Shown piece after piece: positions 11,891 to 53,600 of a stretch of DNA of 64,000 nt (the first letter of the stretch is position 1; each line of letters opens with the position of its first letter). The notes beneath the pieces are model-generated. The model searched no databases. It had not been told where the DNA came from and was given only the letters and a program-made list of their open reading frames with translations. The position numbers were made by a program, and so were the translations under genes. The DNA comes from Calditrichota bacterium (GTDB lineage: Bacteria; Calditrichota; Calditrichia; Calditrichales; J004), in contig RFFS01000015.1 in the NCBI GenBank assembly GCA_003696775.1, positions 10,386 to 74,385 of the forward strand. The letters are read 5' to 3'.

Positions 11891-14800
11891 ATGCACACAC
11901 ATATCAACCCGGATACGGATATTGCCGTCATCGGCATGGCAGGTATATTTCCCGATGCGCCCGACGTGGCGACTTTTTGGAATAATCTGACTCAGGGGAA
12001 AGAATGTATCACGGCATTCGATCCGGAGGCGTTGCGCCAGGCCGGCGTGCCGGATGATCTCATTCAGGACCCGGCGTACATTCCCCGACGCGGCATCATT
12101 GACAACCCCACCGGTTTTGATGCCTATTTTTTTGATTACGCCCCCAACGAGGCGGAAATCATCGATCCGCAACAACGGCTGTTCATGGAAACAGCATGGA
12201 AAGCTCTGGAAGATGCCGCCTGTAATCCGGAAAGTTATGAAGGTTTGATCGGACTTTTCGGCGGTGTGAGTATGAACACCTACCTGTACCGTTATCTGGC
12301 CGCGCGCGGACAGGGTTTTTCCAGCGCCGAAGGCTATCAACTGGCCATTGGAAACGATAAGGATTTCCTGACGACCCGCCTTTCTTACAAATTCAATCTG
12401 CGCGGCCCCAGTGTGGATGTGCAAACCGCCTGTTCCACTTCATTGGTTTCCGTTGTGCTGGCCTGTCAGAACCTGCTTAATTACAGTTGCGACATGGCTT
12501 TGGCCGGTGGCGCTTCCGTTACCATACCGCAGGAACAGGGTTATATGTATCAGGAAGGGATGATCTTATCACCCGACGGTCATTGCCGCCCGTTCGACGC
12601 CAAAGCACGCGGCACCATAAGTGGAAACGGCGTGGGCGTGGTGGTTTTGAAACGCGCCGTCGAGGCGCTGGAAGATGGCGACCATATTTATGCCATCATC
12701 AAAGGCGCCGCCTATAATAATGACGGTGCGCAACGGGTGGGTTATACGGCACCAAGCGTGGATGGTCAGGCCGATGTCATCGCCACGGCACAGGCTCTGG
12801 CCGATGTTTCACCGGACGATATCAGCTATGTGGAATGCCACGGCACCGGCACGGAAATGGGCGACCCCATTGAAATAACCGCATTGAAAAGCATTTTTGC
12901 CGCGGACGGCTTCACACCAAATTCGTGCGCCATCGGTTCGGTTAAAAGCAATATCGGGCATCTCGACGCCGCTGCGGGCATCGCGGGATTTATTAAAGCC
13001 GTACTTTGTCTTTATCATAAAAAACTGGTGCCCACACTTCATTATCAGTCACCCAATCCGCAAATCGATTTTGACCAAACGCCCTTTTATGTTAATACCG
13101 CGTATCGGGACTGGCCGACAGGCGCTTTACCACGCCTGGCAGCGGTGAGTTCTTTTGGAATAGGCGGTACCAATGCCCATGTAATTGTACAGGAAGCGCC
13201 CGTACAGCCCCATGCGGAAGAGCCGGGGCCGCACTTGTTATGTCTTTCCGCTAAAACCACATCCGCCCTGGATGCCATGACCACGCGTCTCGCGGATCAT
13301 CTGGAAAACAATCCCGATATTTCCCTGGCCGATACGGCTTATACCCTATTGATCGGTCGTAAACATTTTAGTCAGCGCCGCATGGTTTGCGCGGTGGATA
13401 AACACGAAGCCGTTCGTTTGTTACGTGGGGAAGACCCTCAACGCCTGCTGGGTATGGGTCATAAAAAAGACCCCGCTCCGCCACAAACCGCCTTTTTGTT
13501 TTCCGGTCAGGGCAGTCAGTATCCTTTGATGGGCAAGGGATTGTATGAACGTTACACAGTTTACCGACAGGCGGTTGATCAATGTGCCGATTTGCTTAAG
13601 CCCCATATCAATAAGGATATCCGCGAACTGCTGTATCCCAAAGGAGATATGGAAAAAGCGGCAAAAGAATTAAACCGAACGGAGTACACGCAACCGGCTC
13701 TTTTTGTTACCGAATATGCCCTGGCGCGGCTTTGGGCTTCGTTTGGTATCCGTCCGCGGGCCATGGCCGGTCATTCCATCGGTGAATATGTAGCCGCTCA
13801 TCTGGCCGGTGTCTTTTCTCTCGAGGATGCGCTCAAGCTTGTCGCCCGCCGCGGTGCCCTTATGCAATCCTTACCCACGGGAAGCATGCTCAGCGTGCCC
13901 CTGGATGAACATGATGTCCGTGACTGGTGTACCGATGACGTGGTGGTGGCCACGGTTAACAGCAAGGGCGCCACCGTGCTTTCCGGCCCGGAAACGTCCA
14001 TCCGGGACGTGGCGGCGGCTCTGCGAGAAAAAGGTATTGAAAGCCGTTTGTTGCATACTTCACATGCCTTTCATTCTCCGATGATGACGCCCATTTTGGA
14101 TGAATTTGAAGCCTATTGCCGCACCATTGCATTTAAGGCGCCCACACTCGATTATTTGTCCAATGTAAGCGGTACCTGGATTACAGCGGAAGAGGCCACC
14201 GACCCCGCATATTATGCCCGTCACCTGCGATCCACCGTCCGTTTTTATGACAACCTGACGGCACTGTATCGTGACTTTAAAGGAATTTTACTGGAATGCG
14301 GGCCGGGTAAAACACTGCAATCGTTTGCTACCCGACATCCAGAAAAAAGTCTGGATCAGGTTCTTCTGACCTCGATGCGTCATCCGAAAGACGCAACCGA
14401 TGACGTGATATTTTTTATGACAGCGCTGGGGCGTTTCTGGCTGGCGGGCCAGCCATTGGAAGCCGATACTTTATTCCATGTTTCCGAACGACGTAAATGC
14501 CCGTTGCCCACTTATCCGTTTGAGAAAAAACATTATTTACTGCCCATACCCAAAGGCGATGTTATTCCACCCACAACGGCAAACCATCCCCCCACACAAT
14601 GGTTTTACACCGGTTATTGGAAACCGGATTTCAGCCAACTTAGGCATGATGAGCCGCTTAAAGCACGACGGAGCGGCGTTACGGCTACGGAATTAAAGAA
14701 TATACAGGATGTGTCCGCGGATGAAGCCATCGTAACGGTTTGGCAGCCGGACCCTACACGCCCCCTGAATGATCTGTACGGTGAATTAGCCAATCTTTGT

Positions 14801-16231
14801 ACTCAATTAAGTTATAACCCGGGTCATCGCCTTATCGTCGTCAGTGATAAGGTATTTCGGGTACTACCCGGAGAAGAGGGCGTGCCCCATGTGGCCGCAT
14901 TGACCGGCCTGTTGCGTTCGTTTGTTGTGGAAGAAAGTCGTTTTTCCTTTACCTGGATCGATACGGATGATTTGCCCCGGTTGGCACCCGGCGCTTTTAA
15001 CAACGGCATCTATGTCAACCGAATTATTGCCCTGCGCGGCGGCCAGCCCTACCGTAGGGAATTTGAACATATAAACGTTTCTTCCAACATATCCTTCCGG
15101 ACACAAGGCCACCCACGGGTGTTGATCACAGGTGGCACCGGCCAACTGGGGGCCTTGTGGGTGGATTACATCAGCAAACAATCCCCCGCGGATTTTTACC
15201 TGTTGAGTCGCAACGGTTTTCCTCCGGCTGAGCAATGGCCTTCCATGGGTAAAACCCATACGGCTTATAACCGGGCGATGATTTTCAGCGCGGCAGAAAA
15301 GCGTGGCAGCCGCATTCGTTTCATTACAGCGGATATGGGCGACACACAACAATTGGATCATACACTGAACAATTTAGACAAGCCCGATATCATCATCCAT
15401 GCCGCGGGACTGGTGGGTGAGGCCGCCATTCATCCTTTGTCTCAAGCAAAACAAGAGAATCCGGTTGTATTTGATGCCAAGGTGAACGGTACCAACCATC
15501 TTATCAAGTGGGCACGTGACAAAAAATGCCCTCTGGTTATTTTACAATCGTCCTTATCAGCGGAACTTGGCGGATATGGATTTTCCGCTTATGCCACAGC
15601 CAATGCCTATATGGATCAATTAACCGGCACATCGGATGAAACCCATATCATTACAATCAACTGGGATGGATGGCGTTTTGATACGGAAGATACAGATAAT
15701 GGTATCCCCAGAGAAGCCGCCGTTACCTTGTTTGACGGAGTTTTTAGCAACAGTCATCTTACACAAATCATTGTCTCTACCGAACCGTTACGGCAACGCA
15801 TGTTGACCTGGCAATACGATCGATCCAAAGCGGATGAAACTGTTACGGAAAACCGTGCTTTATATGATCGTCCCAATTTGCCCACGGCCTATGTGCCGCC
15901 AGAAAATGATCTGCAGGAAGAAATCGCTGCCGTTTGGCAAAATCTCCTGGGTATAGGTCAGGTGGGCATCCATGACGATTTCTTTGATCTCGGAGGCAAT
16001 TCCCTGATGGGCACGCAGCTCATCTCTCGAATGCGGGAACGTTTTAAGGTGGATGTGCCGGTTAAAGCTCTTTTTGAGAACCCGACAATCGCGGGAGTCA
16101 GTGCATTGATCGAAGCAGAACGGGAAAAAGGTCAAAAGCAGGAAGATGTTTTGGCCGACATGCTAAACAAAGTGGAAAACATGAGTCCCGAACAAATCGC
16201 GGCTATGTTAAATCAACAAAAAAAAGATTAA
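11891..16231 (+). CDS. PKS module (1446 aa): KS-AT-KR-carrier, no DH or ER
   Basis: ORF-track ORF starting 5 nt after the upstream stop. KS QTACSTSL/CHGTGT/NIGHLD, AT GHSIGE plus HAFHS, KR VLITGGTGQLG and SAYATANAY, carrier DFFDLGGNSL (NRPS-type T signature). Confidence 0.93.
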   Translation: MHTHINPDTDIAVIGMAGIFPDAPDVATFWNNLTQGKECITAFDPEALRQAGVPDDLIQDPAYIPRRGIIDNPTGFDAYFFDYAPNEAEIIDPQQRLFMETAWKALEDAACNPESYEGLIGLFGGVSMNTYLYRYLAARGQGFSSAEGYQLAIGNDKDFLTTRLSYKFNLRGPSVDVQTACSTSLVSVVLACQNLLNYSCDMALAGGASVTIPQEQGYMYQEGMILSPDGHCRPFDAKARGTISGNGVGVVVLKRAVEALEDGDHIYAIIKGAAYNNDGAQRVGYTAPSVDGQADVIATAQALADVSPDDISYVECHGTGTEMGDPIEITALKSIFAADGFTPNSCAIGSVKSNIGHLDAAAGIAGFIKAVLCLYHKKLVPTLHYQSPNPQIDFDQTPFYVNTAYRDWPTGALPRLAAVSSFGIGGTNAHVIVQEAPVQPHAEEPGPHLLCLSAKTTSALDAMTTRLADHLENNPDISLADTAYTLLIGRKHFSQRRMVCAVDKHEAVRLLRGEDPQRLLGMGHKKDPAPPQTAFLFSGQGSQYPLMGKGLYERYTVYRQAVDQCADLLKPHINKDIRELLYPKGDMEKAAKELNRTEYTQPALFVTEYALARLWASFGIRPRAMAGHSIGEYVAAHLAGVFSLEDALKLVARRGALMQSLPTGSMLSVPLDEHDVRDWCTDDVVVATVNSKGATVLSGPETSIRDVAAALREKGIESRLLHTSHAFHSPMMTPILDEFEAYCRTIAFKAPTLDYLSNVSGTWITAEEATDPAYYARHLRSTVRFYDNLTALYRDFKGILLECGPGKTLQSFATRHPEKSLDQVLLTSMRHPKDATDDVIFFMTALGRFWLAGQPLEADTLFHVSERRKCPLPTYPFEKKHYLLPIPKGDVIPPTTANHPPTQWFYTGYWKPDFSQLRHDEPLKARRSGVTATELKNIQDVSADEAIVTVWQPDPTRPLNDLYGELANLCTQLSYNPGHRLIVVSDKVFRVLPGEEGVPHVAALTGLLRSFVVEESRFSFTWIDTDDLPRLAPGAFNNGIYVNRIIALRGGQPYRREFEHINVSSNISFRTQGHPRVLITGGTGQLGALWVDYISKQSPADFYLLSRNGFPPAEQWPSMGKTHTAYNRAMIFSAAEKRGSRIRFITADMGDTQQLDHTLNNLDKPDIIIHAAGLVGEAAIHPLSQAKQENPVVFDAKVNGTNHLIKWARDKKCPLVILQSSLSAELGGYGFSAYATANAYMDQLTGTSDETHIITINWDGWRFDTEDTDNGIPREAAVTLFDGVFSNSHLTQIIVSTEPLRQRMLTWQYDRSKADETVTENRALYDRPNLPTAYVPPENDLQEEIAAVWQNLLGIGQVGIHDDFFDLGGNSLMGTQLISRMRERFKVDVPVKALFENPTIAGVSALIEAEREKGQKQEDVLADMLNKVENMSPEQIAAMLNQQKKD
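11915..13200 (+). other. Ketosynthase (PKS module 2, aminoacyl-accepting position)
   Basis: DIAVIGMAGIFPDAP, QTACSTSL, CHGTGTEMGDPIE, NIGHLDAAAG, GGTNAHVIVQEAP. Confidence 0.9.
13487..14340 (+). other. Acyltransferase, malonyl-type
   Basis: FLFSGQGSQY, GHSIGE (about 13767..13784), HAFHS (about 14060..14077). Confidence 0.8.
14600..15680 (+). other. Ketoreductase (structural plus catalytic subdomains)
   Basis: VLITGGTGQLGALW (about 15115), SSLSAELGGYGFSAYATANAY. No DH or ER motifs between AT and KR. Confidence 0.75.
15905..16115 (+). other. NRPS-type T domain terminating a PKS module
   Basis: AYVPPENDLQEEIAAVWQNLLGIGQVGIHDDFFDLGGNSLMGTQLISRMRERF. This is the YVAP..E..W..L..G..D.FF.LGG.SL pattern of PCPs rather than the GxDSL pattern of PKS ACPs. 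Confidence 0.75.
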
Positions 16232-16242
16232 GGGATTTAAAA

Positions 16243-16296
16243 CCACAAAGACACGAAGACACTAAGGTTTTTCTTTGCGCCTTAACATCTTTGCGG
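16243..16296. repeat. Intergenic imperfect palindrome, cassette 1 unit 1
   Basis: CCACAAAGACACGAAGACACTAAGG-TTTTT-CTTTGCGCCTTAACATCTTTGCGG. The outer arms CCACAAAGA / TCTTTGCGG pair (one G-U). Confidence 0.75.
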
Positions 16297-16308
16297 TAAA
16301 AAATAAAA

Positions 16309-16361
16309 CCACTAAGGCACGAAGACACTAAGTTCTTCTTTGCGGCTTAGCGTCTTTGTGG
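16309..16361. repeat. Intergenic imperfect palindrome, cassette 1 unit 2
   Basis: CCACTAAGG CACGAAGACACTAAG ttcttctttgcgg CTTAGCGTCTTTGTG G. The 15-nt arms give 13 Watson-Crick pairs, 1 G-U and 1 mismatch. Confidence 0.85.
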
Positions 16362-16384
16362 TAAAAAAAAATAAATGAATAAAA

Positions 16385-16448
16385 CTACTAAGGCACAAAG
16401 ATACAAAGGCACTAAGTTCCTTTTCTTTGCGTCATGGTTGTCTTACTA
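16385..16448. repeat. Intergenic palindrome, cassette 1 unit 3 (degenerate)
   Basis: CTACTAAGGCACAAAGATACAAAGGCACTAAGTTCCTTTTCTTTGCGTCATGGTTGTCTTACTA. The left half is conserved and the right arm is decayed. Confidence 0.55.
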
Positions 16449-16471
16449 TTAAAAGTGTGAGTTTTTAAACT

Positions 16472-19400
16472 ATGAGTTCTGTTTACGAACAAATTGCAAA
16501 CCTGCCCCCCGAAAAACGGGCGGTTTTGGAAATGATGTTACAGGAACAGGGTGTGGACCTGAGTCAGATGCCTATTTTGCCCGGGTCCGGTGACACCAGC
16601 GATTATCCGCTGTCATTTGCTCAGCAGCGTTTATGGTTTTTGGATCAACTGGAACCCGGATCGGCATTATATAATATCTGTTCGCCGGTACGCCTGCGTG
16701 GTAATTTGGATACCGACACCTTACACACTTCACTGGAAACCATCGTCCGGCGACATGCCGTTTTACGCACCACCTTTTACAAGGATGGCGCCGAACCCCG
16801 CCAAAAGGTACATGATGATATCCCCCTGAATTTCAAAATCATCGAATCATCCGATCCTGAAAAAATAAACGATCTGATCCGGGATGAAGCAGCCTACTCA
16901 TTCAACCTGGAACAGGAAGCGCCTGTCCGCATTCGTTTGTTTGTATTCGGACCAACGGATCATCTGTTGGTGGTCACCCTCCACCATATAGTTTCCGATA
17001 ACTGGTCAACCGGTGTGTTGATTCGTGAATTCATGGAATTGTATAATCAATCGCATCAAGGGCAAACACCTCAACTGACACCTTTAAAAGTGCAGTATGG
17101 TGATTTTGCCGCCTGGCAACGCAAATGGCTCAGTGGCAAAACCCTGGAACGGGAAGTAGCCTATTGGAAAGAAAAATTAGAGGGCTTGCCTCCTTTTTTG
17201 GATTTGCCCACCGATTTTCCACGACCGGCCTATCAAACGCATAATGGCGCGGCACAAAAACGTACGCTGGAAGCATCAACCGTTTCGGCACTGCGCTCCC
17301 TGGCCGATCAGAATGATGCAACCTTGTTTATGGTTTTAACAGCGGTATTTGAAGTTTTGCTATATCATTATAGCAAGCAAGATGATTTTGCCATAGGCAC
17401 ACCGATCGCTAACCGCAACCGGGTGGAAACGGAAGCCCTGATCGGTTTTTTCATAAATACTCTGGTGATCCGCGCGGATTTACAGGATATGCCAACGGTG
17501 AAAACACTACTGCAAAAAGTACGCGCTACCCTGCTCGAAGCCTATGCCCATCAGGATGTCCCTTTTGAGACCCTGGTGGAAAAACTCGATCCCGAACGCA
17601 GTATGAGCCATTCGCCGCTGTTTCAGACAATGATTGTATTAAACAATGCCCCGGTGGATACATTGAAACTTTCGGGACTCGAGCTGGAATTGCTTCATGC
17701 GGAAGACACTTCAAGTAAATTCGATCTGATCTTTAATTTTTATGAAGAAGAGGATCATATTTCCACTAAAGTCGAATACAATACCGATTTATTCCGTTCG
17801 GATACCATTACGCGCATGATCGACCACTTTCAACGACTGGCTTGCTGGATGGCTGAACATGCCGACACGTCAATTGACCGGGCCCGGCTCATGTCCACGG
17901 AAGAAGAGAGCGCCCTGTTGCAACAACTTGCGCGAAACGAAAGGATACTCCATTCCGAATCCTTACTGACGGATCTGATCCTGCAACAATGTAAGGTGCA
18001 GGGTGCCAAAGTAGCCTTAAAAAACGCGGAACATAGCCTGGATTATGCCGGTCTGGCACAGAGTATCCACGCCGTAAACACAATGTTAGCCGCAAAAAAC
18101 ATAACATCCGGTGATGTGGTGGCTGTTATGGCCCGCAGGCATCCGCTGACTGTGGCGGCCATGTTGGGCATCATGGCCCGGGGCGCTGTATTTTTGCCCC
18201 TGGACCCCGCCTATCCTGCTGAACGCCTGCGTTTTATGCTGGAAGACAGCGGCACACAATGGATATTATCGAATGATCCCACATCGCCAATCGAACTACA
18301 GCTTGTGGCCGGGCGTCCCTTGGAAATATTGGAAATACCCACTACCGCACCCGAAAAATTACCTGACATCGCGCGGACACCCGAAGCTCAGGCATATCTG
18401 ATTTATACATCAGGATCCACCGGACACCCCAAAGGGGTACGGGTCAACCAACAGGCCATCACCGACCACAGCGTGGATATGAAAAACTATTTTGAACTGA
18501 ATGAAAACGACGTAACATTACAATTCGCCGCCATGAATTTTGACGCGGCGCTGGAACAGCTATTTAGCCCCTTGCTGGCCGGCGCAACCGTGATCCTACG
18601 CGATGATGATATCTGGGCGCCGGAAATATTTTGCGACAAAATCAACGAACTGGGACTGACGGTTATCAACCCAACGACCGCTTACTGGAATCAATGGTGC
18701 GCCCATTTACCCGATAAAGACCACACGGGCTGTCCATCTCTGCGCCTTGTTATTTCCGGTGGCGATGCCATGCAACCTGCCGCCCTGGAAAAATGGCGGC
18801 ACTCATCATTAAGCAAAGTGCGGCTGATCAACGCGTACGGACCCACGGAAACCGTCATAACGGCAAGCTGTTATGATGTACCATCCGATGCACAGGCCCT
18901 GAAAGCCTATTATACTTTGCCCATCGGAACGGTAAACGCCAACCGTCATGCTTATATATTAGACGCTTCCGGACATTTGGCCCCACAGGGCATTCCCGGC
19001 GAACTCTGTATTGGCGGGACCAATGTAGCCATGGGGTACCATAACCGCCCGGAAGAAGAAGCCCGCGTCTTTGTCAACGATCCCTTTCATAAAGGTCGCC
19101 GTATGTATCGCACGGGTGATAAAGCACGCCTGGCCGCGGACGGCATGCTGGAATTTCTGGGGCGTATCGACCAACAGGTAAAAATACGCGGTTTTCGCGT
19201 GGAACCCGGTGAAATTGAATCCATACTGGCCGGTCATCCCGATTTGAGCGCCGTGGCGGTAGCGGTAAAGGAAGACGCCTTGGGCGAAAAACAACTGGTG
19301 GGGTATTTCATCCCCAAGGCAGGCAGTCAACCGGCCATACACGATCTGCGTGCTTTTATGCAAAGTCAATTACCCGCGTACATGGTGCCGGCGGCATTCA

Positions 19401-19825
19401 TCCAAATGGACACATTTCCCACATTGCCGGGCGGCAAAATCAATCGCCGCGCCTTGCCTGTTCCGGAAGACCTGCGCAGTCAGTTGAGCGCCGAATATGT
19501 GGCGCCGCGAACGGAAACGGAAGAGCAACTGGCCGCGATTGTGGCAAATGTGTTGCGCATCGAGAAAGTGGGCATACACGACAATTTTTTCGAACTCGGC
19601 GGTCATTCCATGCTCGGCACACAGGTCATGAGCACCATCCGCGAAACTTTCGGCGTGGAAATTCCCCTGCGCACCCTTTTTGAAAGCCCCACGGTGGAGG
19701 GCATAGCCCTGGCCATTACCGAAGCGTTGGCAGCCGGCATGGATAACGAAGAACTGGCCGGGATGCTGGATGAACTGGATGATTTATCCGATGATGAATT
19801 AAACGCCATGTTAAATGAAGAATAA
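16472..19825 (+). CDS. NRPS, one module (1117 aa): C-A-T with docking-like termini
   Basis: ORF-track ORF. C1 motif YPLSFAQQRLWFLDQ, HHIVSDNWS, A YTSGSTGHPKGV...GGKINRRALP, T FFELGGHSM, acidic C-terminal tail DELDDLSDDELNAMLNEE. Confidence 0.93.
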   Translation: MSSVYEQIANLPPEKRAVLEMMLQEQGVDLSQMPILPGSGDTSDYPLSFAQQRLWFLDQLEPGSALYNICSPVRLRGNLDTDTLHTSLETIVRRHAVLRTTFYKDGAEPRQKVHDDIPLNFKIIESSDPEKINDLIRDEAAYSFNLEQEAPVRIRLFVFGPTDHLLVVTLHHIVSDNWSTGVLIREFMELYNQSHQGQTPQLTPLKVQYGDFAAWQRKWLSGKTLEREVAYWKEKLEGLPPFLDLPTDFPRPAYQTHNGAAQKRTLEASTVSALRSLADQNDATLFMVLTAVFEVLLYHYSKQDDFAIGTPIANRNRVETEALIGFFINTLVIRADLQDMPTVKTLLQKVRATLLEAYAHQDVPFETLVEKLDPERSMSHSPLFQTMIVLNNAPVDTLKLSGLELELLHAEDTSSKFDLIFNFYEEEDHISTKVEYNTDLFRSDTITRMIDHFQRLACWMAEHADTSIDRARLMSTEEESALLQQLARNERILHSESLLTDLILQQCKVQGAKVALKNAEHSLDYAGLAQSIHAVNTMLAAKNITSGDVVAVMARRHPLTVAAMLGIMARGAVFLPLDPAYPAERLRFMLEDSGTQWILSNDPTSPIELQLVAGRPLEILEIPTTAPEKLPDIARTPEAQAYLIYTSGSTGHPKGVRVNQQAITDHSVDMKNYFELNENDVTLQFAAMNFDAALEQLFSPLLAGATVILRDDDIWAPEIFCDKINELGLTVINPTTAYWNQWCAHLPDKDHTGCPSLRLVISGGDAMQPAALEKWRHSSLSKVRLINAYGPTETVITASCYDVPSDAQALKAYYTLPIGTVNANRHAYILDASGHLAPQGIPGELCIGGTNVAMGYHNRPEEEARVFVNDPFHKGRRMYRTGDKARLAADGMLEFLGRIDQQVKIRGFRVEPGEIESILAGHPDLSAVAVAVKEDALGEKQLVGYFIPKAGSQPAIHDLRAFMQSQLPAYMVPAAFIQMDTFPTLPGGKINRRALPVPEDLRSQLSAEYVAPRTETEEQLAAIVANVLRIEKVGIHDNFFELGGHSMLGTQVMSTIRETFGVEIPLRTLFESPTVEGIALAITEALAAGMDNEELAGMLDELDDLSDDELNAMLNEE
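18036..19460 (+). other. Adenylation domain, unassigned code DAENIGAITK (acidic pocket residue; basic substrate suspected)
   Basis: FDAALEQ (D,A,E), VINPTT (N), VISGGD (I,G), NAYGPTETVIT (A,I,T). Shares D-A-E-x-I-G with the Lys code DAESIGSVCK as I recall it. Confidence 0.35.
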
Positions 19826-28752: not shown

Positions 28753-28768
28753 TTTGGTACCCCTTGCC

Positions 28769-29722
28769 ATGAATGATAAACAAATACCCAACGGTATTCT
28801 TGTAAGCGGATTGGTGCGTTCCGGCACCACCTGGACAGCGCGCATGCTGAATTTTTCCCCACAAACCATTTTTGTGCTGGAACCTTTCAACATATTGCGT
28901 GATCCCATCCATTTGCTCAAGGCCGGCACCAATTATCCCTATTGGTCTCATCCGGATGCACACATTTTTCAAAAAATCCGAAGCGGCGTCGGTTTAAGTT
29001 TTACACCGGAAGAGTTCAGGATTTTCATGAAAGAATCTTCCTCGTTCAAATATCATCTGTATCATCTCGTACGCTATATAACACTCAACCGCCGTATAAA
29101 AAAAGGGATGCGCCCGGTGGTTCAGGACCCGTTCGCCATATTCATGGCCCCCTGGCTTTACGAAAAGCTAAGTTTGCGTCCCCTGTTTCTTTTTCGTCAT
29201 CCGGCGGCCTATATCAACAGCATGAAACGCATGAAATGGGGCTTTAATTTTGACTGGCTGGCGCGACGGGAATCCTTGATGGAGGGGGTGTTATCTCCTT
29301 TCAAGGATGAAATCCTGAAATGGGCGCCGAAGGCATTCATCCCTTTTTCCATTGAAACCCAGTGTCTGGTCTGGAATATCTTTACCGGCATCATGCTAAC
29401 CTACCGTGATACTTATCCGGACTGGTTGTTTTTTCGCCATGAAGACCTTTCCATGGAACCGGTGGCTCATTTTAAAAAAATTTATCACGAATTGGGTTTC
29501 CCTTTCAGCGCACCGATTATAAAAAAAATAGAAGAATTCACGGGTACCGGGAACACGGTCGAAGCCAAATCCGGTAAAATGCATACCCTTAAACGAAACA
29601 ACCGCGCCAATGTAAAATTATGGCAAAAACAACTGGAACCGGCCGAAATCACGCTTATTCGCAAACAGACGGAACAGGTGGCCGCACGTTTATATGACGA
29701 CGACTCCTGGCCGAAATTATGA
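28769..29722 (+). CDS. Stand-alone PAPS-dependent sulfotransferase (317 aa from ATG 28769)
   Basis: In frame with ORF-track ORF 28685..29722. N-terminal GILVSGLVRSGTTWTARML (5'-phosphosulfate-binding loop). FVLEPF, FLFRHPAAYINSMKR and FFRHEDLSMEP parallel [21 protein letters not shown] and [11 protein letters not shown] of the embedded ST domain. ATG 28769 lies 16 nt after the upstream stop. Confidence 0.8.
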   Translation: MNDKQIPNGILVSGLVRSGTTWTARMLNFSPQTIFVLEPFNILRDPIHLLKAGTNYPYWSHPDAHIFQKIRSGVGLSFTPEEFRIFMKESSSFKYHLYHLVRYITLNRRIKKGMRPVVQDPFAIFMAPWLYEKLSLRPLFLFRHPAAYINSMKRMKWGFNFDWLARRESLMEGVLSPFKDEILKWAPKAFIPFSIETQCLVWNIFTGIMLTYRDTYPDWLFFRHEDLSMEPVAHFKKIYHELGFPFSAPIIKKIEEFTGTGNTVEAKSGKMHTLKRNNRANVKLWQKQLEPAEITLIRKQTEQVAARLYDDDSWPKL

Positions 29723-43976: not shown

Positions 43977-44014
43977 CCCTTTACATACGTTTTATTTGAG
44001 GATTGCAACCGTAT

Positions 44015-47000
44015 ATGGAAAATGTACAGGATATTTATCCCCTGTCGCCCATGCAGCAGGGGATGTTGTTTCATACTTTATACGCACCGGAAAGCGCGAA
44101 TTATACCGAACAAATGAGCGCTGAATTTAACGGGCCGCTTAACATTACAGCCTTCCGGCAGGCCTGGCAATGCGTGCTCGATCGTCATGATGTGCTGCGC
44201 AGCGCCTTTGTCTGGGAAGATGTGGATGAACCGCTGCAGGTGGTGCATGAATCCCTGGAAATCCCTTTTGAACTCCTGGACTGGAGCGGCATCCCGGATG
44301 AGACTTTTCGCGACCGTTTTGAAAAGTTGAAAATTAAAGAACGTGAGCAGGGGTTCGATCTGACCGACGCGCCGCTGTTGCGTGTAAAAATTGTTAAGCA
44401 GGACGCACATCGCCACGGATTTCTTTTCACCTATCATCATATTTTATTAGACGGATGGGCCATGCCCATCGTACTCGGCGAATTATTTAGTCTGTACGAC
44501 GCCAATGATAAAAACAAAACACCCGATTTGCCTCCTGTCCGCCCTTTTAAACACTATATCGCCTGGCTGCGGGAACAGGACAAGGATCAAGCGGATCGCT
44601 TCTGGCGCGATCGATTAAGCGGCTTTTACAGCACCACGCCTCTTGTGGTGGATCATCCGCCGTTGGAAGGCGTCCGACCATACATCAAAAAACATTATGA
44701 ATGTGGCGTGGAAACGAGCCAGGCCCTGCATTCCTTTGTCCGCGAAAATAAATTGACTTTAAATACGGTCATGCAAGGCGCGCTGGGTTTGGTACTGGCC
44801 TATTACAACCGCACCGATGATGTGGTGTTCGGCGCGACGGTTTCCGGACGTCCCTCGGAAATTCCGGGCATCGAAAGCATGGTGGGTTTGTTTATCAACA
44901 CCCTGCCCGTGCGCGCGCGTTTCGATTACAGGGAAAAACTGATCGATTATCTCAAACGGCTGCACGCGGAACAAAATGAAGCCCGGGTTTACGAATACAC
45001 CCCTTTGGTGGATATAAAAAAAGTCAGTGAACTCTCCGATGATCAACCGTTATTCGAAACGCTGTTTGTATTCGAAAACTATCCGGTGGATGAATCGGTC
45101 AAACAGCAAAAATCGGATATCCATATTACCGATGTGGCTGTTTTTGAACGTAGCAACTATCCTTTAACCGTAGTGGCGTCTTCCGGCATGCCGTTAGCAT
45201 TGCAAATGGCTTTTGATACCGCCCGTTTATCCGAAAAAGCGGTGGATCGGCTGGCCGGTCACCTCATCCGTGTCCTACAAACCCTGATTGAGCAACCCGA
45301 CGTTTCGATAAAGGACATACGCTTTATAACCGAAGCCGAGGAGAAGAAACTTCTTGAAGAGATGAATGCCACCCGACGGCCGTATCCAGCGGATAAAACC
45401 GCCATTCAATTATTTGAAAAAATGGTCGCTTTGTATCCCCGCAATCGGGCCGTGGAGCATAATGATGATCATTTAACCTATGAAGCCCTTAACCATCGCG
45501 CCAACGGATGGGCCGCTTATTTGCGCAAACAGGGTGTGACCCCGGGTGGTTTCGTGGCGCTTTGCCTGCCCCGTTCCGTCGATATGATCACGGCCACCCT
45601 GGCCATACTGAAATGCGGCGCGGTGTATATTCCCATCGATATGGAATATCCCGTGGAGCGCATTCAATACATCGTCAACGATTCCAATGCCGGTCATGTG
45701 ATCACTACCGATGCCATCCATGACGCCGCCGGATTGGATGTGACGTTGATCTCCTTAAAGGAATTGCGGCAACAAGAGGCGGTGAACGAAAATCCGCCTG
45801 TCATGATAAGTGCCGATGCCCCGGCCTATATGATATATACTTCCGGTTCCACCGGAAAACCCAAAGGCGTTCTTTTACATCACAAAGGTCTTTCCAATAC
45901 CATCCACGCCCAAATAGAAGATTTTGGCATCACACCGCAATCCAACGGGCTGCAATTTGCCAGTTACGGTTTTGACGCGGCGGTCAGCGAGGTCTTTTCC
46001 TGTCTGATGGCCGGCGCCACGCTGCATATCGTGGAAAAGGAAACCATTCTTAACATAGACGCCTTCAGCGCGTTTTTAAAAGAGCATAAAATTTCATATG
46101 TCACCTTGCCGCCATCCCTGCTGACGCTCCTGGCCAACAGGGATTTTCCCGATCTTAAAACCGTTATTTCCGTGGGCGAGGCCTGCTCCCGCGCCCTGGC
46201 CCAAAAATGGAAAGACCGTTACCGCTTCATCAACGGATACGGCCCCACCGAGGCCACCATCGGCTGTGTTTGGAGTGTTGTAGAAAACTTGCCGGTCGAA
46301 GCGCGCACGGCGCCCATCGGCCGTCCCATATACAATGACAGGGTTTATATAGTGGACCCGTTTATGCGCCCCACACCCGTGGGCGTCCCCGGTGAGTTGT
46401 GCATCGCCAGTCCCGGATTGGCCATCGGATATCATAAACGCCCCGATCTCACGGCGGAAAAATTCATCAACAACCCTTTTTCCACGGATGAAGGCGCCCG
46501 AATATACCGCAGTGGCGACCTGGCCCGCTGGCTCGATGACGGGGTAATTGAATTCATCGGACGAATTGATTTTCAGGTAAAAATTCGCGGTAACCGTATT
46601 GAATTGGGTGAAATTGAAGCGGTTTTAAATGACTATGAAGCCGTTCGTGACGCTGTGGTCATCGCTCTGGGTGACGCGCCGGAAAGGATGCGACTGGCAG
46701 CTTATATCATCCCCGCCGGGGATAGCGTGGACCTGACCGCTTTGCGCGGTTATCTGACCGAAAAGCTACCCGACTATATGCAGCCCGCAGCTATCACCGT
46801 CATGCAGGCTTTTCCTCTCACACATAACGGAAAAGTAAACCGCCGCGCGTTGCCGGAACCCGACTGGGAGGCTCAAAGCGAAGATAACACCACGACCGCG
46901 GCCACCACTCCCGTGGAGGATGTGTTGCTTTCTCTGTGGCGCGATGTGTTAGGGGTAACAACCTTGTCAGTACATGATAACTTCTTCCATTTGGGCGGGC

Positions 47001-50000
47001 ATTCCCTGCTGGCCACCCAATTGGTATCCCGTATCCGTGATGCCTTTGATGTGGAAATCCCCCTAAAGAAACTCTTTGAACAGCCGACCGTCGCGCATCT
47101 GGCCGGGCTCATCCAACAAGCCCGACAAAACGAACGGGGCTTTACCCTGCCGCCGCTTACCGCAGGCCCGCGTCCGGAACATATCCCCTTATCCTTTGCC
47201 CAGCAACGTTTGTGGTTTCTGGATCAGCTCCAACCCGGCGGCACTTTTTACAATATCCCGTCCGCTTTCCGGATCGAAGGACCGCTGCAAGACAAGGCGC
47301 TGGAAAATGCGCTGGCTTCGCTCATGCAAAGACATGAAATCCTGCGCACCACTTTCGCTGAAAACGGTGGTAAACCACGTCAGATCATACATGAAGATAT
47401 GCCTCTGCCCCTGTCCCGTGAAGACCTGAGCGACGTGCCCCGGACAACCCTTGACGATGAAATCCGTGAACGGGTTCGAAAGGATGCGCTTCATGTGTTC
47501 GATTTAACAACCGGCCCTCTTTGGCGGGCATGTTTGTACAATATCGGAGATAATCAACATATATTCTCCCTTAACCTGCACCATAGCATCGCCGACGGTT
47601 GGTCGATGGGTATTTTCATGGCCGAACTTGCCGAACTGTATCGTTCCGCGGTGGAAGGGTCGCCCGCCCGTTTGCCGGACCTGGAGGTTCAATATGCCGA
47701 CTATGCCTTATGGCAACAAAACTGGCTGCAGGGTGAAATACTCACACAACAACTGAACTATTGGCGTGAAACGATCGGTGAAGACCCGCCTGTTTTGGAA
47801 CTGCCGCTGGATTGCCCGCGTCCGGCTGTACAAACCTTTAACGGCGCGGCTTTGACGCACACCCTGCCCGATGATCTCAGCCGGAAAATTTTTGAAGAAA
47901 GCGCCGCTTTCGGTGTAACGCCCTATATGCTGATGCTGGCCGCCTTTCAGGCCCTGTTGCATCGTTACAGCGGTCAGGATACCGTCATCGTCGGTTCCCC
48001 GGTGGCCAACCGGAACCATAGCGGCACCGAAGGGCTTATCGGCTTCTTTGTCAACAATCTCATCATTAAAAGCGATTTTTCCCAACAACAGGCTTTTGAA
48101 ACGCTATTACTTGATGTACGCGATACCATGCTGGAGGCCTACGCCCATCAGGATGTGCCCTTTGAGAAAATAGTGGATGCCCTGGTCACCCGTCGCGACA
48201 CCAGTCATGCGCCCATTTTTCAGGTAATGTTCGTCTATCAAAACCTGCCACAACAGGAGGCCACGACTTCCGATATCCACTTGCAACAACTGGAATATGA
48301 ATCCGTTACATCAAAATTCGACTTGTCCGTGACCATTAATCCCGCGGAAACGGGCATGGCCTGGCAATTCGAATACAATACGGACCTGTTCAATGCCGAT
48401 ACCATTGAACGTATGATGCACCATTATGAAAACTTTTTGCGTGAAGCGTTGGAAGATAGCGAGCAATATATTCATGAAATCGATTATTTAAGTGAAGAAG
48501 AAACCCGTTTATTAACGGAAAACTGGAACCGGACATCTTCTCCTTTTGAACAGGAAAAATGTGTTCATGAACGATTTGCCATGCACGTAAGCGCGCAGCC
48601 GGATCATCCCGCGTTGCAATTCGGCGAGAAACGCATGAGTTATCGGGAGCTGGATCAACGCTCTTCGGAGCTGGCCGCTCAACTTTTGGAAAAAGGCGTG
48701 CATACGGAAACACGGGTCGGCATCTGCCTGCATCGTTCCTTTGAGATGTTCATCTCCATTCTGGGGGTGATGAAGGCCGGTGGCGCTTATCTGCCTCTGG
48801 ACCCGGGTTATCCCTCCGAACGGCTGGCTTATATGATGGACGACGCCCGCACACCGGTTGTATTGACAAGCGGTGATACGCAAACCCTTTTGGAACCGGT
48901 GATTACGACATTACAACAGCCCCCCGTCTTGTTAAATGTGGAAGAATTGACCACCGCGCCTCCGTCGGCCTCGTTACCGGATATCTCACCGGAAAATCTG
49001 GCTTATGTGATCTATACATCCGGTTCCACGGGCCGTCCCAAGGGGACATTGCTGAACCACAAGGGTTTGGTGAACCTGGCTGAAATTCAACGTCAAAAGT
49101 TCGGAATCTCCCCCCAAAGCCGTATCCTGCAATTTTCTTCTTTCAGTTTTGACGCCTCCGTATGGGAATTGGTTATGGCATTGTTAAATGGCGCTACCCT
49201 GGTGTTGATGCAACAGGAAACAGCCGTTTCCGGAGACGCCCTGACCGATTTGATGGCGCAGCAGTCTGTTACGACCGTCACCTTGCCGCCGTCGGTTTTA
49301 TCCGTATTCCCGGATAAGGAACTGCCAGACTTACAAACCATCATAACCGCCGGCGAAGCGTGCAGCGCGGAGTTGGTTAAAAAATGGGGCCGCGGCCGTC
49401 GTTTTTTCAACGCTTACGGTCCCACGGAAACAACCGTTTGCGCGTCCATGTACGAAGCCTCTCCGGAGGCGGATACCGCGCCGCCCATCGGCAACGCCAA
49501 TCCCAATTTTCGCTTATATGTTCTGGATGACCACGGCGCCCTTGTTCCGGTGGGCATACCCGGTGAATTATGTGTGGGCGGTGTGGGACTGGCCCGCGGT
49601 TATCATAACCGTCCGGAACTGACCGCCGAAAAATTCATTCCCGACAGATATTCAGGCATCCCAGGCGCGCGGTTGTACCGTACCGGTGATCTGGTGAAAC
49701 GACGACCGGACGGTAACATTGAATTTCTGGGACGCATCGACCATCAGGTGAAGGTACGCGGTTTTCGTATTGAACTGGGCGAAATTGAAGCGGTGCTGGC
49801 CGGCATGGATGGGATTCGTGATGTGATTGTCCTGGCCCGTGAAGACCGGCCGGGTGAAAAACGTCTTGTGGCCTATTGTGTCACCGATCCTTCCATGGAG
49901 ATCAATGTTTCGGCTGTAAAGAATCATGCGCGGAAACATTTACCGGATTATATGGTGCCGGTGCATTTTATGATGTTGGCATCCATGCCTTTAACGCCCA

Positions 50001-50392
50001 ACGGTAAAGTGGATCGAAAAGCCTTGCCCGCCCCGGAGGGAGATCGTAGTCAGTTGAATGTTGAATTCATTGCCCCGAGAAATGAAACCGAAGAAAAACT
50101 GGCGGCTATCGTCAGTGAATTACTCCATGTGGAAAAAGTGGGGGTTTATGATAACTTTTTCGATCTCGGTGGGCATTCGCTTTTGGCCACGCAATTCATG
50201 TCGCGCATACGAAGCACGTTCGACATCGAACTGCCTTTGATGACCTTATTTGAAAAGCCGACCATTGCCGACTTAAGCGATCAGGTGGAGATAGCCAGGG
50301 CCAGTGGCATGAAAGCCAAGCCTAAAATTGAAAAGATTGAAAGGGCCGCGCGTCCGACGGCACGTCGCCCTGCGCGCCGGTCAAGAAAATAA
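44015..50392 (+). CDS. NRPS, two modules (about 2125 aa from ATG 44015): DCL-A(?)-T-LCL-A(Phe)-T
   Basis: ORF-track ORF 44003..50392. I prefer ATG 44015 because GAGGA at 43997..44001 is 13 nt upstream of it, whereas TTG 44003 is only 1 nt after that motif. [13 protein letters not shown] plus HHILLDGWA (DCL), [66 protein letters not shown], basic C-terminal tail. Confidence 0.9.
   Translation: [2125 protein letters not shown]
44030..45310 (+). other. DCL-type condensation domain
   Basis: [23 protein letters not shown] (HH at about 44434). Follows the E domain of the previous protein. Confidence 0.75.
45472..46857 (+). other. Adenylation domain, unassigned code DASTIVGIGK
   Basis: FDAAVSE (D,A,S), VTLPPS (T), VISVGE (I,V), [11 protein letters not shown] (G,I,G). 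The D-A-S-T start resembles Tyr-type codes, but Gly at 322 and 331 does not match any code I can recall. Confidence 0.3.
48635..50030 (+). other. Adenylation domain, Phe code DAWTIAAVCK
   Basis: [30 protein letters not shown]. Confidence 0.7.
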
Positions 50393-50401
50393 TGCATTAA
50401 A

Positions 50402-50449
50402 CCACGAAGTCACTAAGTTCTTTCTCTTTGCGTCTTAGAGTCTTTGTGG
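50402..50449. repeat. Intergenic imperfect palindrome, cassette 2 unit 1
   Basis: CCACGAAGTCACTAAG ttctttctctttgcgt CTTAGAGTCTTTGTGG. About 13 of 16 arm positions pair, plus one G-U. Confidence 0.8.
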
Positions 50450-50471
50450 TAAAAAAATTAAATGAATAAAA

Positions 50472-50527
50472 CTACTCAGGCACGAAGACACTAAGTTCTT
50501 TCTCTTTGCGTCTTAGAGTCTTAGCGG
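50472..50527. repeat. Intergenic imperfect palindrome, cassette 2 unit 2
   Basis: CTACTCAGGCACGAAGACACTAAGTTCTTTCTCTTTGCGTCTTAGAGTCTTAGCGG. Confidence 0.8.
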
Positions 50528-50550
50528 TAAAAATAATTAAAAGAACAAAA

Positions 50551-50598
50551 CCACTCAGGCACGAAGACACTAAGTTCTTTCTCTTGGCGTCTTTGTGG
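50551..50598. repeat. Intergenic imperfect palindrome, cassette 2 unit 3
   Basis: CCACTCAGGCACGAAGACACTAAGTTCTTTCTCTTGGCGTCTTTGTGG. Confidence 0.8.
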
Positions 50599-50622
50599 TA
50601 TAAATGAAAAAAACGAACGCAT

Positions 50623-53600
50623 ATGGCTGAATACGAAATTACCGAAGAACAATCGTACAGTTTTCCCACATCGTTTGCCCAGCAACGCTTATGGTTTTTA
50701 GATCAGTTTGAGCCAGGCAGTCCCTTTTACAACATCCCCACGGCGGTACGTATCATCGGGAAATTGGACATACCGGCCCTGCAGGATACGATAGATGAAA
50801 TCGTCTATCGTCACGAATCGCTGCGCACAACCTTCGACAAAGTGGATGACGAACCTGTACAGGTGATTCATGCCGATATGGTTTGTCCGTTGGAAATTGT
50901 GGACCTGCGCGCCTTACCCGCCGATGAACGCGAGGCCGAGGCGCAACGCATGGCCACCAACGAAGCGCGTACACCCTTTGATCTAAAAACAGGTCCCCTG
51001 TTCCGTTCAAAACTGATCCGTTTGAAAGATGATGAAGCCATCATGCTCGTCACCATGCATCACATTATCAGCGATGGCTGGAGCATCGGTGTTTTTATGC
51101 GTGAAGTGGCTCTGATTTACGACGCCTTTAGCAAAGACCGCGATGTGCCTCTTCCCGATTTGCCCATCCAATACGCCGATTTTTCCAAATGGCAAAGGGA
51201 CTGGTTGCAAGGGGAAGTGCTGGAAAAACAGATGCGTTTTTGGAAGGAGACACTCGGCCCGGTGCCGCCGGTGTTGGAATTGCCCACGGATAAACCACGT
51301 CCGGCCATCCAGTCGAATCGTGGCGCCAACTATCATCACCGCATCCCGCGTGCCCTATATGACCAACTGGTGGCTCACGCCCGTCAACAGGGTGTCACCC
51401 CCTTTATGGCTTTGTTGGGCATATTCTACTTGTTGTTGCATCGATACAGCGGACAGGACGATATATGTGTCGGTACCCCCATTGCCAACCGCACCCAGGC
51501 CGAAACAGAAGGTTTGATCGGTTTTTTTGTCAACACTCTTGTTTTGCGCGCCCAAATAAAAGATGGTATTTCTTTCAATCAATTGTTGCAGGAAATCCGT
51601 CAACATACCCTGCAAGCCTACGCCCATCAGGATGTGCCGTTCGAAATGCTGGTGGAAGCCCTGCAACCGGAACGCAGCATGAGCCATTCCCCGCTGTTTC
51701 AGGTGATGTTCATTCTGCAAAACGCCACCGGTGACGGCCACGCCATGCAAAATGTGTCCGCCGCCGATACCATCCGGATGGAACAAATAGAAGTGGATGC
51801 CGGCACATCCACCTTTGACATTACGGTTTCCCTGGCGGAACAAAACACGCATCTTCTCGCTTCAGTGGAATATTGCACCGACCTGTTTGAAAAAGAAACC
51901 ATGGCGCGCTTCATACAACATTATGAGAATTTGATCCGTGCCGCGCTGTCGCAACCGGATGTTCCTGTTTTCAGGTTACCCGTGCTCAATCAACAGGAGC
52001 AGAAGGTCATCCTGCAAGACTGGAACAACGGGCCTGTTCACTATGAATGGCGGCGCTGCATGCACCATCTGGTGTCGGAGCACGCCCGGCAAACACCCGA
52101 AGCCGTTGCCGTGGCGATCGACGGCCGGCATCTCACATACGGCGCATTGGAACGCCGCGCCAATCAATTGGCCCGACGCCTGATCAAGGAAGGCGTTCAA
52201 CCCGAAACAGCGGTGGGCATCTGTCTGGAAAAATCGCACGATTTGATGATCGCCGTGTTAGCCGTGCTCAAAGCGGGGGGCGGTTACGTCCCCATGGACC
52301 CGGATTATCCCCCGGAACGGCTGGCCTATATGATAGGGGATGCCCAAACACCGGTGTTACTCACCCATACTTCCCTTCTGGAACGCCTGCCGCAAAGTCC
52401 GGCACGGCCGATTTGTCTTGATCATGAAGCGGCGGCCCTGGACGCCCTGCCGGACACCGACCCACAAGTAGCGGTCGCCCCGGATAACCTGGCCTATATG
52501 ATCTATACCTCGGGAACCACGGGAAAAGCCAAGGGTGTTTGCATCGCCCATCAAAGCTGGGTGAATTCCTATTTTGCCTGGGAAAGCGCTTACGAATTAA
52601 AAACCCGTTGCCGTTCACATCTGCAAATGGCCAATTTTTCTTTTGATGTTTTTGCCGGCGATACCATCCGCGCCCTGGCTTCCGGAGGCAAACTGACCCT
52701 GATCCCCAGGGATACCCTGCTCAACGCTGAAAAATTGTATGCCGAAATGCTGCGGGAACAGGTAACCATCGCCGAATTCGTGCCGGCGGTTCTACGCAAC
52801 CTGACCGCTTATCTCGACAGCATCGGCAAAGACCTCTCTTTCATGCGCTGTCTGATCGCCGGTTCCGATGCCTGGTATGTGGGTGAATACCGTCAATTTT
52901 TGGAATACGGCGGCGCCGATACCCGTCTGATCAATTCCTTCGGCTTAACAGAAGCGGCCATTGATAGTACCTATTTTGAAGCGGCCCAACTGGACCTGCC
53001 CGCCGACAGGCATGTCCCCATAGGTAAACCCTTTAGCAATATGCAGGTTTATATTGTGGATCGCTATCTCAATCCCCAACCCATCGGTGTACCGGGGGAA
53101 ATATGCGTGGGCGGAGCGGGAGTGGCCCGCGGCTATCATCATCGCCCGGAACTGACGGCGGAAAAATTCATCCCCGATCCGTTCAGCGGGCAACCCGGCG
53201 CGCGCCTCTACCGTACCGGCGACAAAGGAAAATTTTTGCCGGACGGCAACATCGAATTTATGGGAAGAATCGATTTTCAGGTCAAACTACGCGGTTTCCG
53301 CATCGAACTGGGCGAAATCGAATCCAATTTGTCCCGCCATCCCAACATCAATCATGCCGTGGTGATTGTCCGCGAAGATACGCCGGGTGATAAACGGTTG
53401 GTGGCGTATTACACAACGGAAGATGATCAATCGCTGGAAATCACCGTACTGAAGCGATTTCTGTTGGAGAAGTTGCCCGACTATATGATCCCCAATGCCT
53501 TTGTCCGACTGGACAGCATTCCCTTAACGCCCAATGGCAAGGTGGATCGCAAAGCGTTACCGGTGCCCGGCGACAAAGACTACGGCGCATCACAGGAATA

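Follow-up and report, generated by a model that had tools for sequence, protein, structure and literature searches.

Two arrays of tandem palindromes in a Calditrichota PKS-NRPS operon share their arms with genes of the GxxExxY (PDDEXK_3) protein family: possible REP/MITE-like relatives of a nuclease cassette

Several described kinds of repetitive or mobile DNA come close to the intergenic palindromes reported here, the arms of which are built of 8-nt sub-repeats. REP and REPIN sequences with their RAYT genes (Bertels & Rainey 2011, PMC3116915) are, like the arms of this study, short imperfect extragenic palindromes that are often clustered or in tandem and lie between co-directional or convergent genes, and in both cases inverted copies of the repeat flank a protein gene of the single-copy type, gene-less copies far exceed the gene, and no target-site duplication is seen. 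MITEs and their parent insertion sequences resemble the arms in that terminal inverted repeats are common to a coding element and to short non-coding copies, and the coding element which shares its arms with the units described below would be the autonomous one; also MITE-like is that the elements are A+T-rich, intergenic, and present or absent between related genomes. PD-(D/E)XK homing endonuclease genes, such as that of I-Ssp6803I, are either free-standing or intron-borne, and they are similar in that a small nuclease is the sole gene of a selfish element and is located in the middle of a pseudo-palindromic site. The 23S rRNA intervening-sequence cassettes that encode the 'four helix bundle protein' TIGR02436 consist of a gene of ~120 aa bracketed by inverted repeats, are multicopy in Bacteroidota, Cyanobacteria and Leptospira, and are inserted into transcribed units; as they are generally described, they share with the present element a small, inverted-repeat-bracketed gene within transcribed units.

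The window, i.e., the whole 64-kb stretch of DNA which was analysed, consists of one long plus-strand PKS-NRPS operon with a GC content of 0.52, and orthologues of its genes carry the label Caldithrix. For the proteins of genes 2 and 3, and for one further protein (P0121), no exact match was on record. An earlier note on this DNA had described most junctions of the operon as short and had singled out 16232-16471 as long. Other junctions are indeed short (5, 20, -68, 15, -8 and 26 nt, the -68 nt junction being probably due to a mis-called start). One more long junction, between gene 8 and gene 9, is not mentioned in that note; there is no third one in the operon, and it holds a second array (Table 1). 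The GC content of the gap is 0.35 for array 1, in comparison to 0.52 for the window, and 35% for array 2. With regard to the negative junction, the sulfotransferase-like ORF at 28685-29722 (TTG start as listed) overlaps gene 4 (19846-28752) by 68 nt, and its true start is probably further downstream because its orthologues are a protein of 313-315 aa that begins after gene 4.

Table 1. Positions of the two arrays, their units and the neighbouring genes in the 64-kb window
Feature	Position	Strand	Description
gene 2	11891..16231	+	PKS module KS-AT-KR-ACP; upstream neighbour of array 1
array 1	16232..16471		240-nt gene 2/gene 3 junction; three gene-less units in A-rich spacers
array 1, unit 1	16243..16296		F arm CCACAAAGACACGAAGACACTAAG, short loop, R arm TCTTTGCGCCTTAACATCTTTGCGG (GCG variants)
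array 1, unit 2	16309..16361		F arm CCACTAAGGCACGAAGACACTAAG, loop TTCT, R arm TCTTTGCGGCTTAGCGTCTTTGTGG
array 1, unit 3	16385..16448		F arm with four octamers; R arm decayed
gene 3	16472..19825	+	NRPS module C-A-T; downstream neighbour of array 1
gene 8	44003..50392	+	two-module NRPS; matches NCBI RMH66210.1 (Calditrichota MAG); upstream neighbour of array 2
array 2	50393..50624		232-nt gene 8/gene 9 junction; three units collinear with array 1
array 2, unit 1	50402..50449		from sequence, folding and arm profile
array 2, unit 2	50472..50527		from sequence, folding and arm profile
array 2, unit 3	50551..50598		from sequence, folding and arm profile
gene 9	50625..64000	+	large NRPS running off the window; 4504 aa in locus L211; downstream neighbour of array 2

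The earlier note had placed three units in array 1 at 16243-16296, 16309-16361 and 16385-16448 and had quoted a consensus for them, and both were found to be right when checked directly against the sequence; its description of the third unit as having a decayed right arm was also seen again, the F arm of that unit being composed of four octamers. Tandem Repeats Finder reported a period of 65 with 2.0 copies and 87% matches for array 1, plus the diverged third unit, together with sub-repeats of period 8 and period 16, the arms being composed of 8-nt sub-repeats with the sequence CACNAAGN in one arm and NCTTNGTG in the opposite one. Because the arms consist of 8-nt units, alternative pairing registers are available, and the best fold of unit 2 is in fact a shifted register, so that the period of 8 and this fold together bear out the proposal that the sub-repeats permit two registers.

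The folding check against shuffled controls which the earlier note had proposed came out in favour of the palindromes. The whole gap of array 1 folds better than its dinucleotide shuffles on both strands, with z of -3.6 on the plus strand and -4.5 on the minus strand, while single units have z values between -2.9 and -4.0 (plus strand) and between -1.2 and -6.2 (minus strand). For unit 1 the folding energy is -13.5 kcal/mol on the plus strand and -24.9 kcal/mol (z -6.2) on the minus strand, and for unit 2 the z is -4.0 and -3.5, respectively; neither strand of the window units consistently folds better. When the window was searched for CACGAAGACACTAAG with up to 3 mismatches, 13 matches were found in comparison to 0.76 expected, and all of them are located in the two long gaps. 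Arrays 1 and 2 can be aligned over their full length, with the spacers, at an identity of 83%, and all six units read CCAC/CTAC, loop, GTGG/GCGG, i.e., with their RCCAC ends outward. Since the two arrays are collinear, either one junction received its three-unit block of ~200 nt as a copy from the other, or both arrays descend from one common block.

To see how the arrays compare with the same operon elsewhere, orthologous loci from related MAGs and metagenome contigs were examined. The gene 2/gene 3 junction is 38-47 nt long and free of repeats in five orthologous loci, two of which have duplicate records (L121, L124), and in two of these loci the junction between genes 8 and 9, with lengths of 35 and 78 nt, is free of arms; in addition, no arm was found anywhere in the six related loci scanned (L120, L122, L126, L207, L208; ~86 kb). 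As the orthologous junctions are short and arm-free, both arrays are insertions specific to the lineage of the window. Among near-identical strains, a contig with 99.83% identity to the window carries the same array 1, and L211 (JGI 3300014822), which is 99.94% identical to window positions 34015-60235, on both sides of array 2, has five units in its array 2 (16379-16765, a gap of 387 nt; Tandem Repeats Finder period 79, 4.4 copies) in comparison to three in the window. The Logan contigs L212 and L213 break off inside unit 1 of array 2. The difference between three and five units could be a copy-number polymorphism or an assembly collapse or artefact; the unit number is thus polymorphic or assembly-sensitive, and in either case it is not constrained. 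The repeat-free orthologues and the five units in a strain of 99.94% identity indicate that the arrays are recent, unstable and dispensable, and they would thus appear to be tolerated passengers of the operon.

The arms are not confined to the window, and the suggestion of the earlier note that the units could belong to a dispersed repeat is supported by the second array as well as by arms of this kind in many phyla. When species-representative genomes were scanned for the exact 15-mer, at least 119 loci were found. Although ~1100 chance 15-mer matches are expected in the whole genome collection, a chance origin of the cross-phylum matches was ruled out, because nearly all of the sampled matches lie within further in-phase CACNAAGN octamers and thus carry a third octamer. 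Among the matches listed, the arm consensus is 5'-RC(CACNAAGN)3, with exactly three octamers in the modal arm, and the six core positions of the octamer are ~99% conserved, while N4 is near random and N8 is mostly A or G; the outer end of the arm is marked by TT-W-R-C ahead of the first CAC. The hosts named among these matches include Bacteroidota, Planctomycetota, Cyanobacteria, Nitrospirota, Acidobacteriota, Chloroflexota, Desulfobacterota, Verrucomicrobiota, Ignavibacteria, Calditrichota and others, and no genome of Firmicutes, Actinobacteria or Enterobacteria is named in 80 record titles among the matches listed. The arm pairs lie in tight intergenic gaps, 24 of them between co-directional, 12 between convergent and 4 between divergent genes (matches listed).

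The arrangement of the arms was also informative. Pairs of the order F-loop-R numbered 62 in comparison to 17 of the order R-F among the matches listed, and the loops of these 62 pairs are 0-237 nt long and mutually unrelated in sequence; single arms and direct tandem arms are present among the same matches. At N4, the positions of the two arms are Watson-Crick compatible in 48 of 173 comparisons (28%), which is the chance level for the matches listed. Mismatches compatible with G.U pairing showed no strand bias (28 vs 26 at N4 and 26 vs 21 at N8, matches listed), as measured on the arbitrary strand of each locus and not by the direction of transcription. Since pairing at the variable positions is at chance, it is the octamer core of each arm that is conserved and not the pairing between arms, and the hairpin itself, as the selected feature of the family, was ruled out by this chance pairing at N4 together with the single and direct tandem arms. 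The family consensus further includes, on both strands, a T-run ahead of the element and an A-run behind it (matches listed). No matching family was found in Rfam 15, where a permissive threshold gave only noise, the best match having 22 bits in comparison to a gathering score of 122 and all E values being at least 0.3.

Some individual loci depart from the usual arrangement. In a Flavobacteriaceae MAG (L028, 943-1653), six single arms in direct tandem are located directly upstream of a GxxExxY gene, with a period of 47-48 nt and identical T-rich spacers, in a non-hairpin arrangement. In a Thermoanaerobaculales MAG (L078, 7696-7822), there is an unbroken run of ~13-16 octamers (CACGAAGA..., CACTAAGG...), where three per arm are usual, and a Chloroflexia MAG (L010, 4767-5176) has four tandem repeats of 109 nt with one arm pair in each. 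The loop of a CACNAAG-type pair holds a nested pair of another type (CGCAAAG/CGCAGAG, CACAGAG) at L082 (3874-4011) and L063 (2378-2526), which suggests insertion into the centre of existing elements. The 15-mer is also contained in two bins labelled as archaeal (L018, L069), which could be due to bin contamination or to transfer; the Methanocellaceae MAG L069 also has a GxxExxY gene, ~200-250 nt away from the arms and not abutting them.

A protein partner of the arms was found by searching for ORFs between arms that are 260-4500 nt apart in the 15-mer loci listed. Three ORFs of 130-133 aa are enclosed by an F arm and an R arm with almost no spacer, and two further small ORFs adjoin arms, among the matches listed. 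All five belong to Pfam PF13366 (PDDEXK_3), with E values of 1e-36 to 1e-42, and to NCBIfam TIGR04256 ('GxxExxY protein'), with 135-149 bits in comparison to a cut-off of 35, and they are the sole PDDEXK_3 genes among the matches listed for the at least 119 loci. No RAYT was found among the 10 arm-adjacent ORFs scanned against Pfam. One of the loci, in a Nitrospiraceae MAG (L080, 1927-3541), has a complete arm-GxxExxY-arm cassette between nuoI (Fer4) and nuoJ (Oxidored_q3) of the NADH dehydrogenase operon, with more gene-less arm pairs downstream of the cassette.

Since these loci had been picked by a DNA motif, an independent sample of 80 GxxExxY genes was drawn from metagenome contigs by protein similarity alone; interrogating the flanks of a gene for a repeat is the approach which was used for RAYTs (PMC3116915). 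The results showed that 40 of the 80 genes have arms of the CACNAAG type within 150 nt, typically with F upstream and R downstream, and that most of the other genes have the same architecture with a variant unit, such as CGCNAAG, CACNGAG, CGCAGAG, CACAACG or the 9-nt CACCAAGGN. A motif-free test gave a similar picture, as 56 of the 75 genes with both flanks available are bracketed by an inverted repeat with z of at least 4 over shuffles, and the bracketing repeats are outward-facing arms of three units of 8-9 nt of the form C[AG]CN[AG][AG]GN. The density of arms is 3.08/kb near a GxxExxY gene in comparison to 0.095/kb elsewhere in the same loci, a 32-fold difference. The type of arm follows the similarity of the protein, with CACNAAG-type arms at 29 of the 40 closest homologues in comparison to 11 of the 40 more distant ones (p = 1e-4), a correlation that may in part be due to genome GC content and phylogeny. 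The same arrangement is found in RefSeq isolates, in Bernardetia between ade and a guanylyltransferase gene and in Bacteroides finegoldii between radA and a gene for a FAD-protein. The GxxExxY genes of loci L127-L206 are mostly co-directional with their neighbours (45 of 58 upstream and 47 of 54 downstream, counts that have no genomic baseline set beside them), with median gaps of ~80 nt, which is consistent with promoter-less cassettes that are expressed by read-through.

The connection to the window was made through a profile built from 48 gene-flanking arms, which gave 11 matches in the 64 kb, located only in 16242-16417 and 50398-50603, with a best E value of 1.6e-6. In array 1, the arm-profile match of unit 1 has an E value of 1.7e-6, and that of unit 2 has 1.6e-6 on the plus strand and 8e-4 on the minus strand. 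No PDDEXK_3 ORF was found in the window or in the related loci examined.

The GxxExxY protein has ~125 aa and is a predicted PD-(D/E)XK nuclease, in which the catalytic D...ExK residues (D74, E84 and K86) are invariant. No solved structure matches the protein by sequence; its AlphaFold model has a pLDDT of 73, and a Foldseek search of this model against the PDB gave weak PD-(D/E)XK matches, the best of which (Cas4 SSO0001, E 0.06) is too weak to name the closest enzyme. The family is very large, with at least 8000 candidates by protein search, and a survey of PD-(D/E)XK proteins in 2012 listed the function of PF13366 as 'Unknown' and noted 'multiple transfers' between divisions (PMC3424549). 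No relative was found in IMG/VR, and one was present on 8 of 72,556 plasmids, all non-mobilizable, so that phage or plasmid vectors are unlikely. In the literature searched by family, motif, variants and related concepts, neither the arms nor their association with GxxExxY genes was found described, and the matches to the motif strings and to the degenerate motif were only primers and unrelated texts.

On balance, the evidence leans slightly towards the view that the window units are REP/MITE-like, non-autonomous and gene-less arm pairs of a minimal nuclease cassette. The full cassette would consist of one gene, for the ~125-aa GxxExxY protein (PDDEXK_3, TIGR04256), between outward-facing arms (RCCAC...GTGGY), and in the window a block of ~200 nt with three units was inserted into two intergenic junctions of the operon. 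Judged from the sequences, the nuclease may recognise each arm as a duplex through its conserved CAC and AAG triplets, and such recognition would explain the conserved cores with free N positions as well as the persistence of single arms. By analogy with the dependence of REPINs on RAYT and of MITEs on transposase, the nuclease, acting in trans, might make the breaks through which gene-less arm pairs are copied, after which the unit number would drift through unequal recombination; the 125-aa nuclease has no obvious strand-transfer activity. In the sense mRNA, the units would form moderately stable hairpins followed by A-runs, and the arrays should therefore not terminate transcription. An origin of the gene-less pairs by internal deletion of a full cassette is unsupported, because there is no target-site duplication, the lengths of direct repeats abutting the 62 pairs among the matches listed being equal to the shuffled expectation, and because no GxxExxY gene remnants were found in the loops of gene-less pairs.

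In terms of known systems, the description of the units as a REP/MITE-like selfish element in the earlier note thus stands in its broad meaning, as the units are dispersed, absent from orthologous junctions, variable in copy number, and share their arms with a cassette. Strictly speaking they are not REP elements, since the gene that goes with the arms encodes a PD-(D/E)XK nuclease instead of a RAYT; no target-site duplication was found. The gene between the arms encodes a ~125-aa nuclease here and a Y1/HUH transposase (RAYT) in REP/REPIN systems; the arm consists of three 8-nt direct sub-repeats with free N positions, in comparison to a G+C-rich stem in REP; the octamer is essentially the same across phyla, while REP sequences are lineage-specific; and pairing between arms at the variable positions is not maintained, unlike in REP. 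The units also differ from MITEs in that target-site duplication is absent from the 62 pairs among the matches listed, the loops are mutually unrelated and hold no remnant of a coding element, and the encoded protein is outside the known transposase classes. In contrast to the PD-(D/E)XK homing genes, there is no intron or intein, and the sites are multicopy, intergenic triplets of octamers. The TIGR02436 cassettes, as generally described, differ from the GxxExxY element in the fold of their protein.

One alternative is that the gene-less pairs are target sites, and that GxxExxY is a free-standing homing endonuclease gene copying itself into the centres of palindromes, which would themselves spread otherwise, e.g., by recombination or duplication. 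The position of the gene, always in the place of the loop between outward-facing arms, agrees with this idea, as do the absence of target-site duplication and the gene-less loops that hold nested elements with other octamers (L082, L063), which suggest that the centre does receive insertions. It leaves unexplained, however, how arrays of three units appeared at two formerly empty junctions, and single arms and tandem direct arms (L028) exist besides palindromes; we therefore regard it as an unlikely account. About as improbable, in our estimate, is that the units are exapted RNA elements, i.e., hairpins in the operon mRNA that stabilise it against 3'-exonucleases, serve as processing sites or, as spacers, keep the translation of neighbouring megasynthase genes uncoupled. 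Stabilisation of upstream mRNA is known for REP elements, and this possibility gains from that precedent, from the better folding of the units than of their shuffles, and from the presence of both arrays within one operon, with A-runs and not U-runs after them on the sense strand, so that they are not like a sense terminator. Against it, the arrays are absent from orthologous operons and vary in unit number, pairing between arms is no better than chance at the variable positions (N4 48/173, matches listed) and shows no strand bias of G.U pairs, neither strand of the window folds consistently better, and there is no Rfam match. The role in mRNA processing or stability that the earlier note had considered is hence possible but not needed, since orthologous operons work without the repeats and pairing is not maintained.

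Two regulatory interpretations have still less in their favour. Hairpins on the minus strand followed by a U-rich run could terminate antisense transcription into the operon, and on the minus strand units 1 and 2 of array 1 are indeed followed by GTGGTTTTATTTTTT, the spacers of array 2 are U-rich, and the gap folds with z -4.5; but a terminator scan of 16100-16600 gave 0 sites on either strand, and in the family consensus the T-run comes first and the A-run last on both strands, the reverse of a terminator, which makes such antisense insulators very improbable. The same scan disposed of an intrinsic terminator with a G+C-rich stem and U-tract, as 0 sites were found on both strands and, on the sense strand, A-runs come after the hairpins; a scan for sigma-70 promoters found nothing. 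The notion that the arrays are operators for a regulator of the biosynthetic cluster, although conserved octamers are repeated at two junctions of one operon, is hardly credible when genomes of many phyla have this arm at unrelated loci, such as the nuo operon or next to radA or ade, and orthologous clusters lack it; no cluster-encoded gene for a DNA-binding protein of such arrays was seen in the window. The protein-binding array which the earlier note had offered as a third role is plausible for the cassette's own nuclease: cores that are ~99% conserved, with N free and without co-variation of N between arms, fit recognition by that nuclease and not by an operon regulator.

To return to the gene-less arm pairs of a nuclease cassette, a broader claim can be made tentatively, at somewhat less than an even chance and from sequence comparison: GxxExxY genes and RC(CACNAAGN)3 arms may form a class of minimal mobile elements in many phyla for which no description was found in the literature searched, with gene-less pairs as REP-like repeats in the FCB and PVC groups, Cyanobacteria, Nitrospirota, Acidobacteriota and others, the arrays of the window being passengers. 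As far as the literature searched shows, the link between arms and nuclease is new for the protein and the repeat families, and for the operon itself it is ordinary; the arrays can probably be dropped when the gene cluster is refactored for heterologous expression. Such palindromes break short-read assemblies and insert even in essential or giant operons (nuo, PKS-NRPS). If the link holds, a very large family with no assigned function would gain both a function and a DNA partner, the three CACNAAGN octamers of each arm, and an explanation would be at hand for a class of palindromes frequent between genes in phyla that do not as a rule have classical REP/RAYT systems. It would also offer a possible new route of DNA mobility which proceeds via a nuclease and not a transposase.
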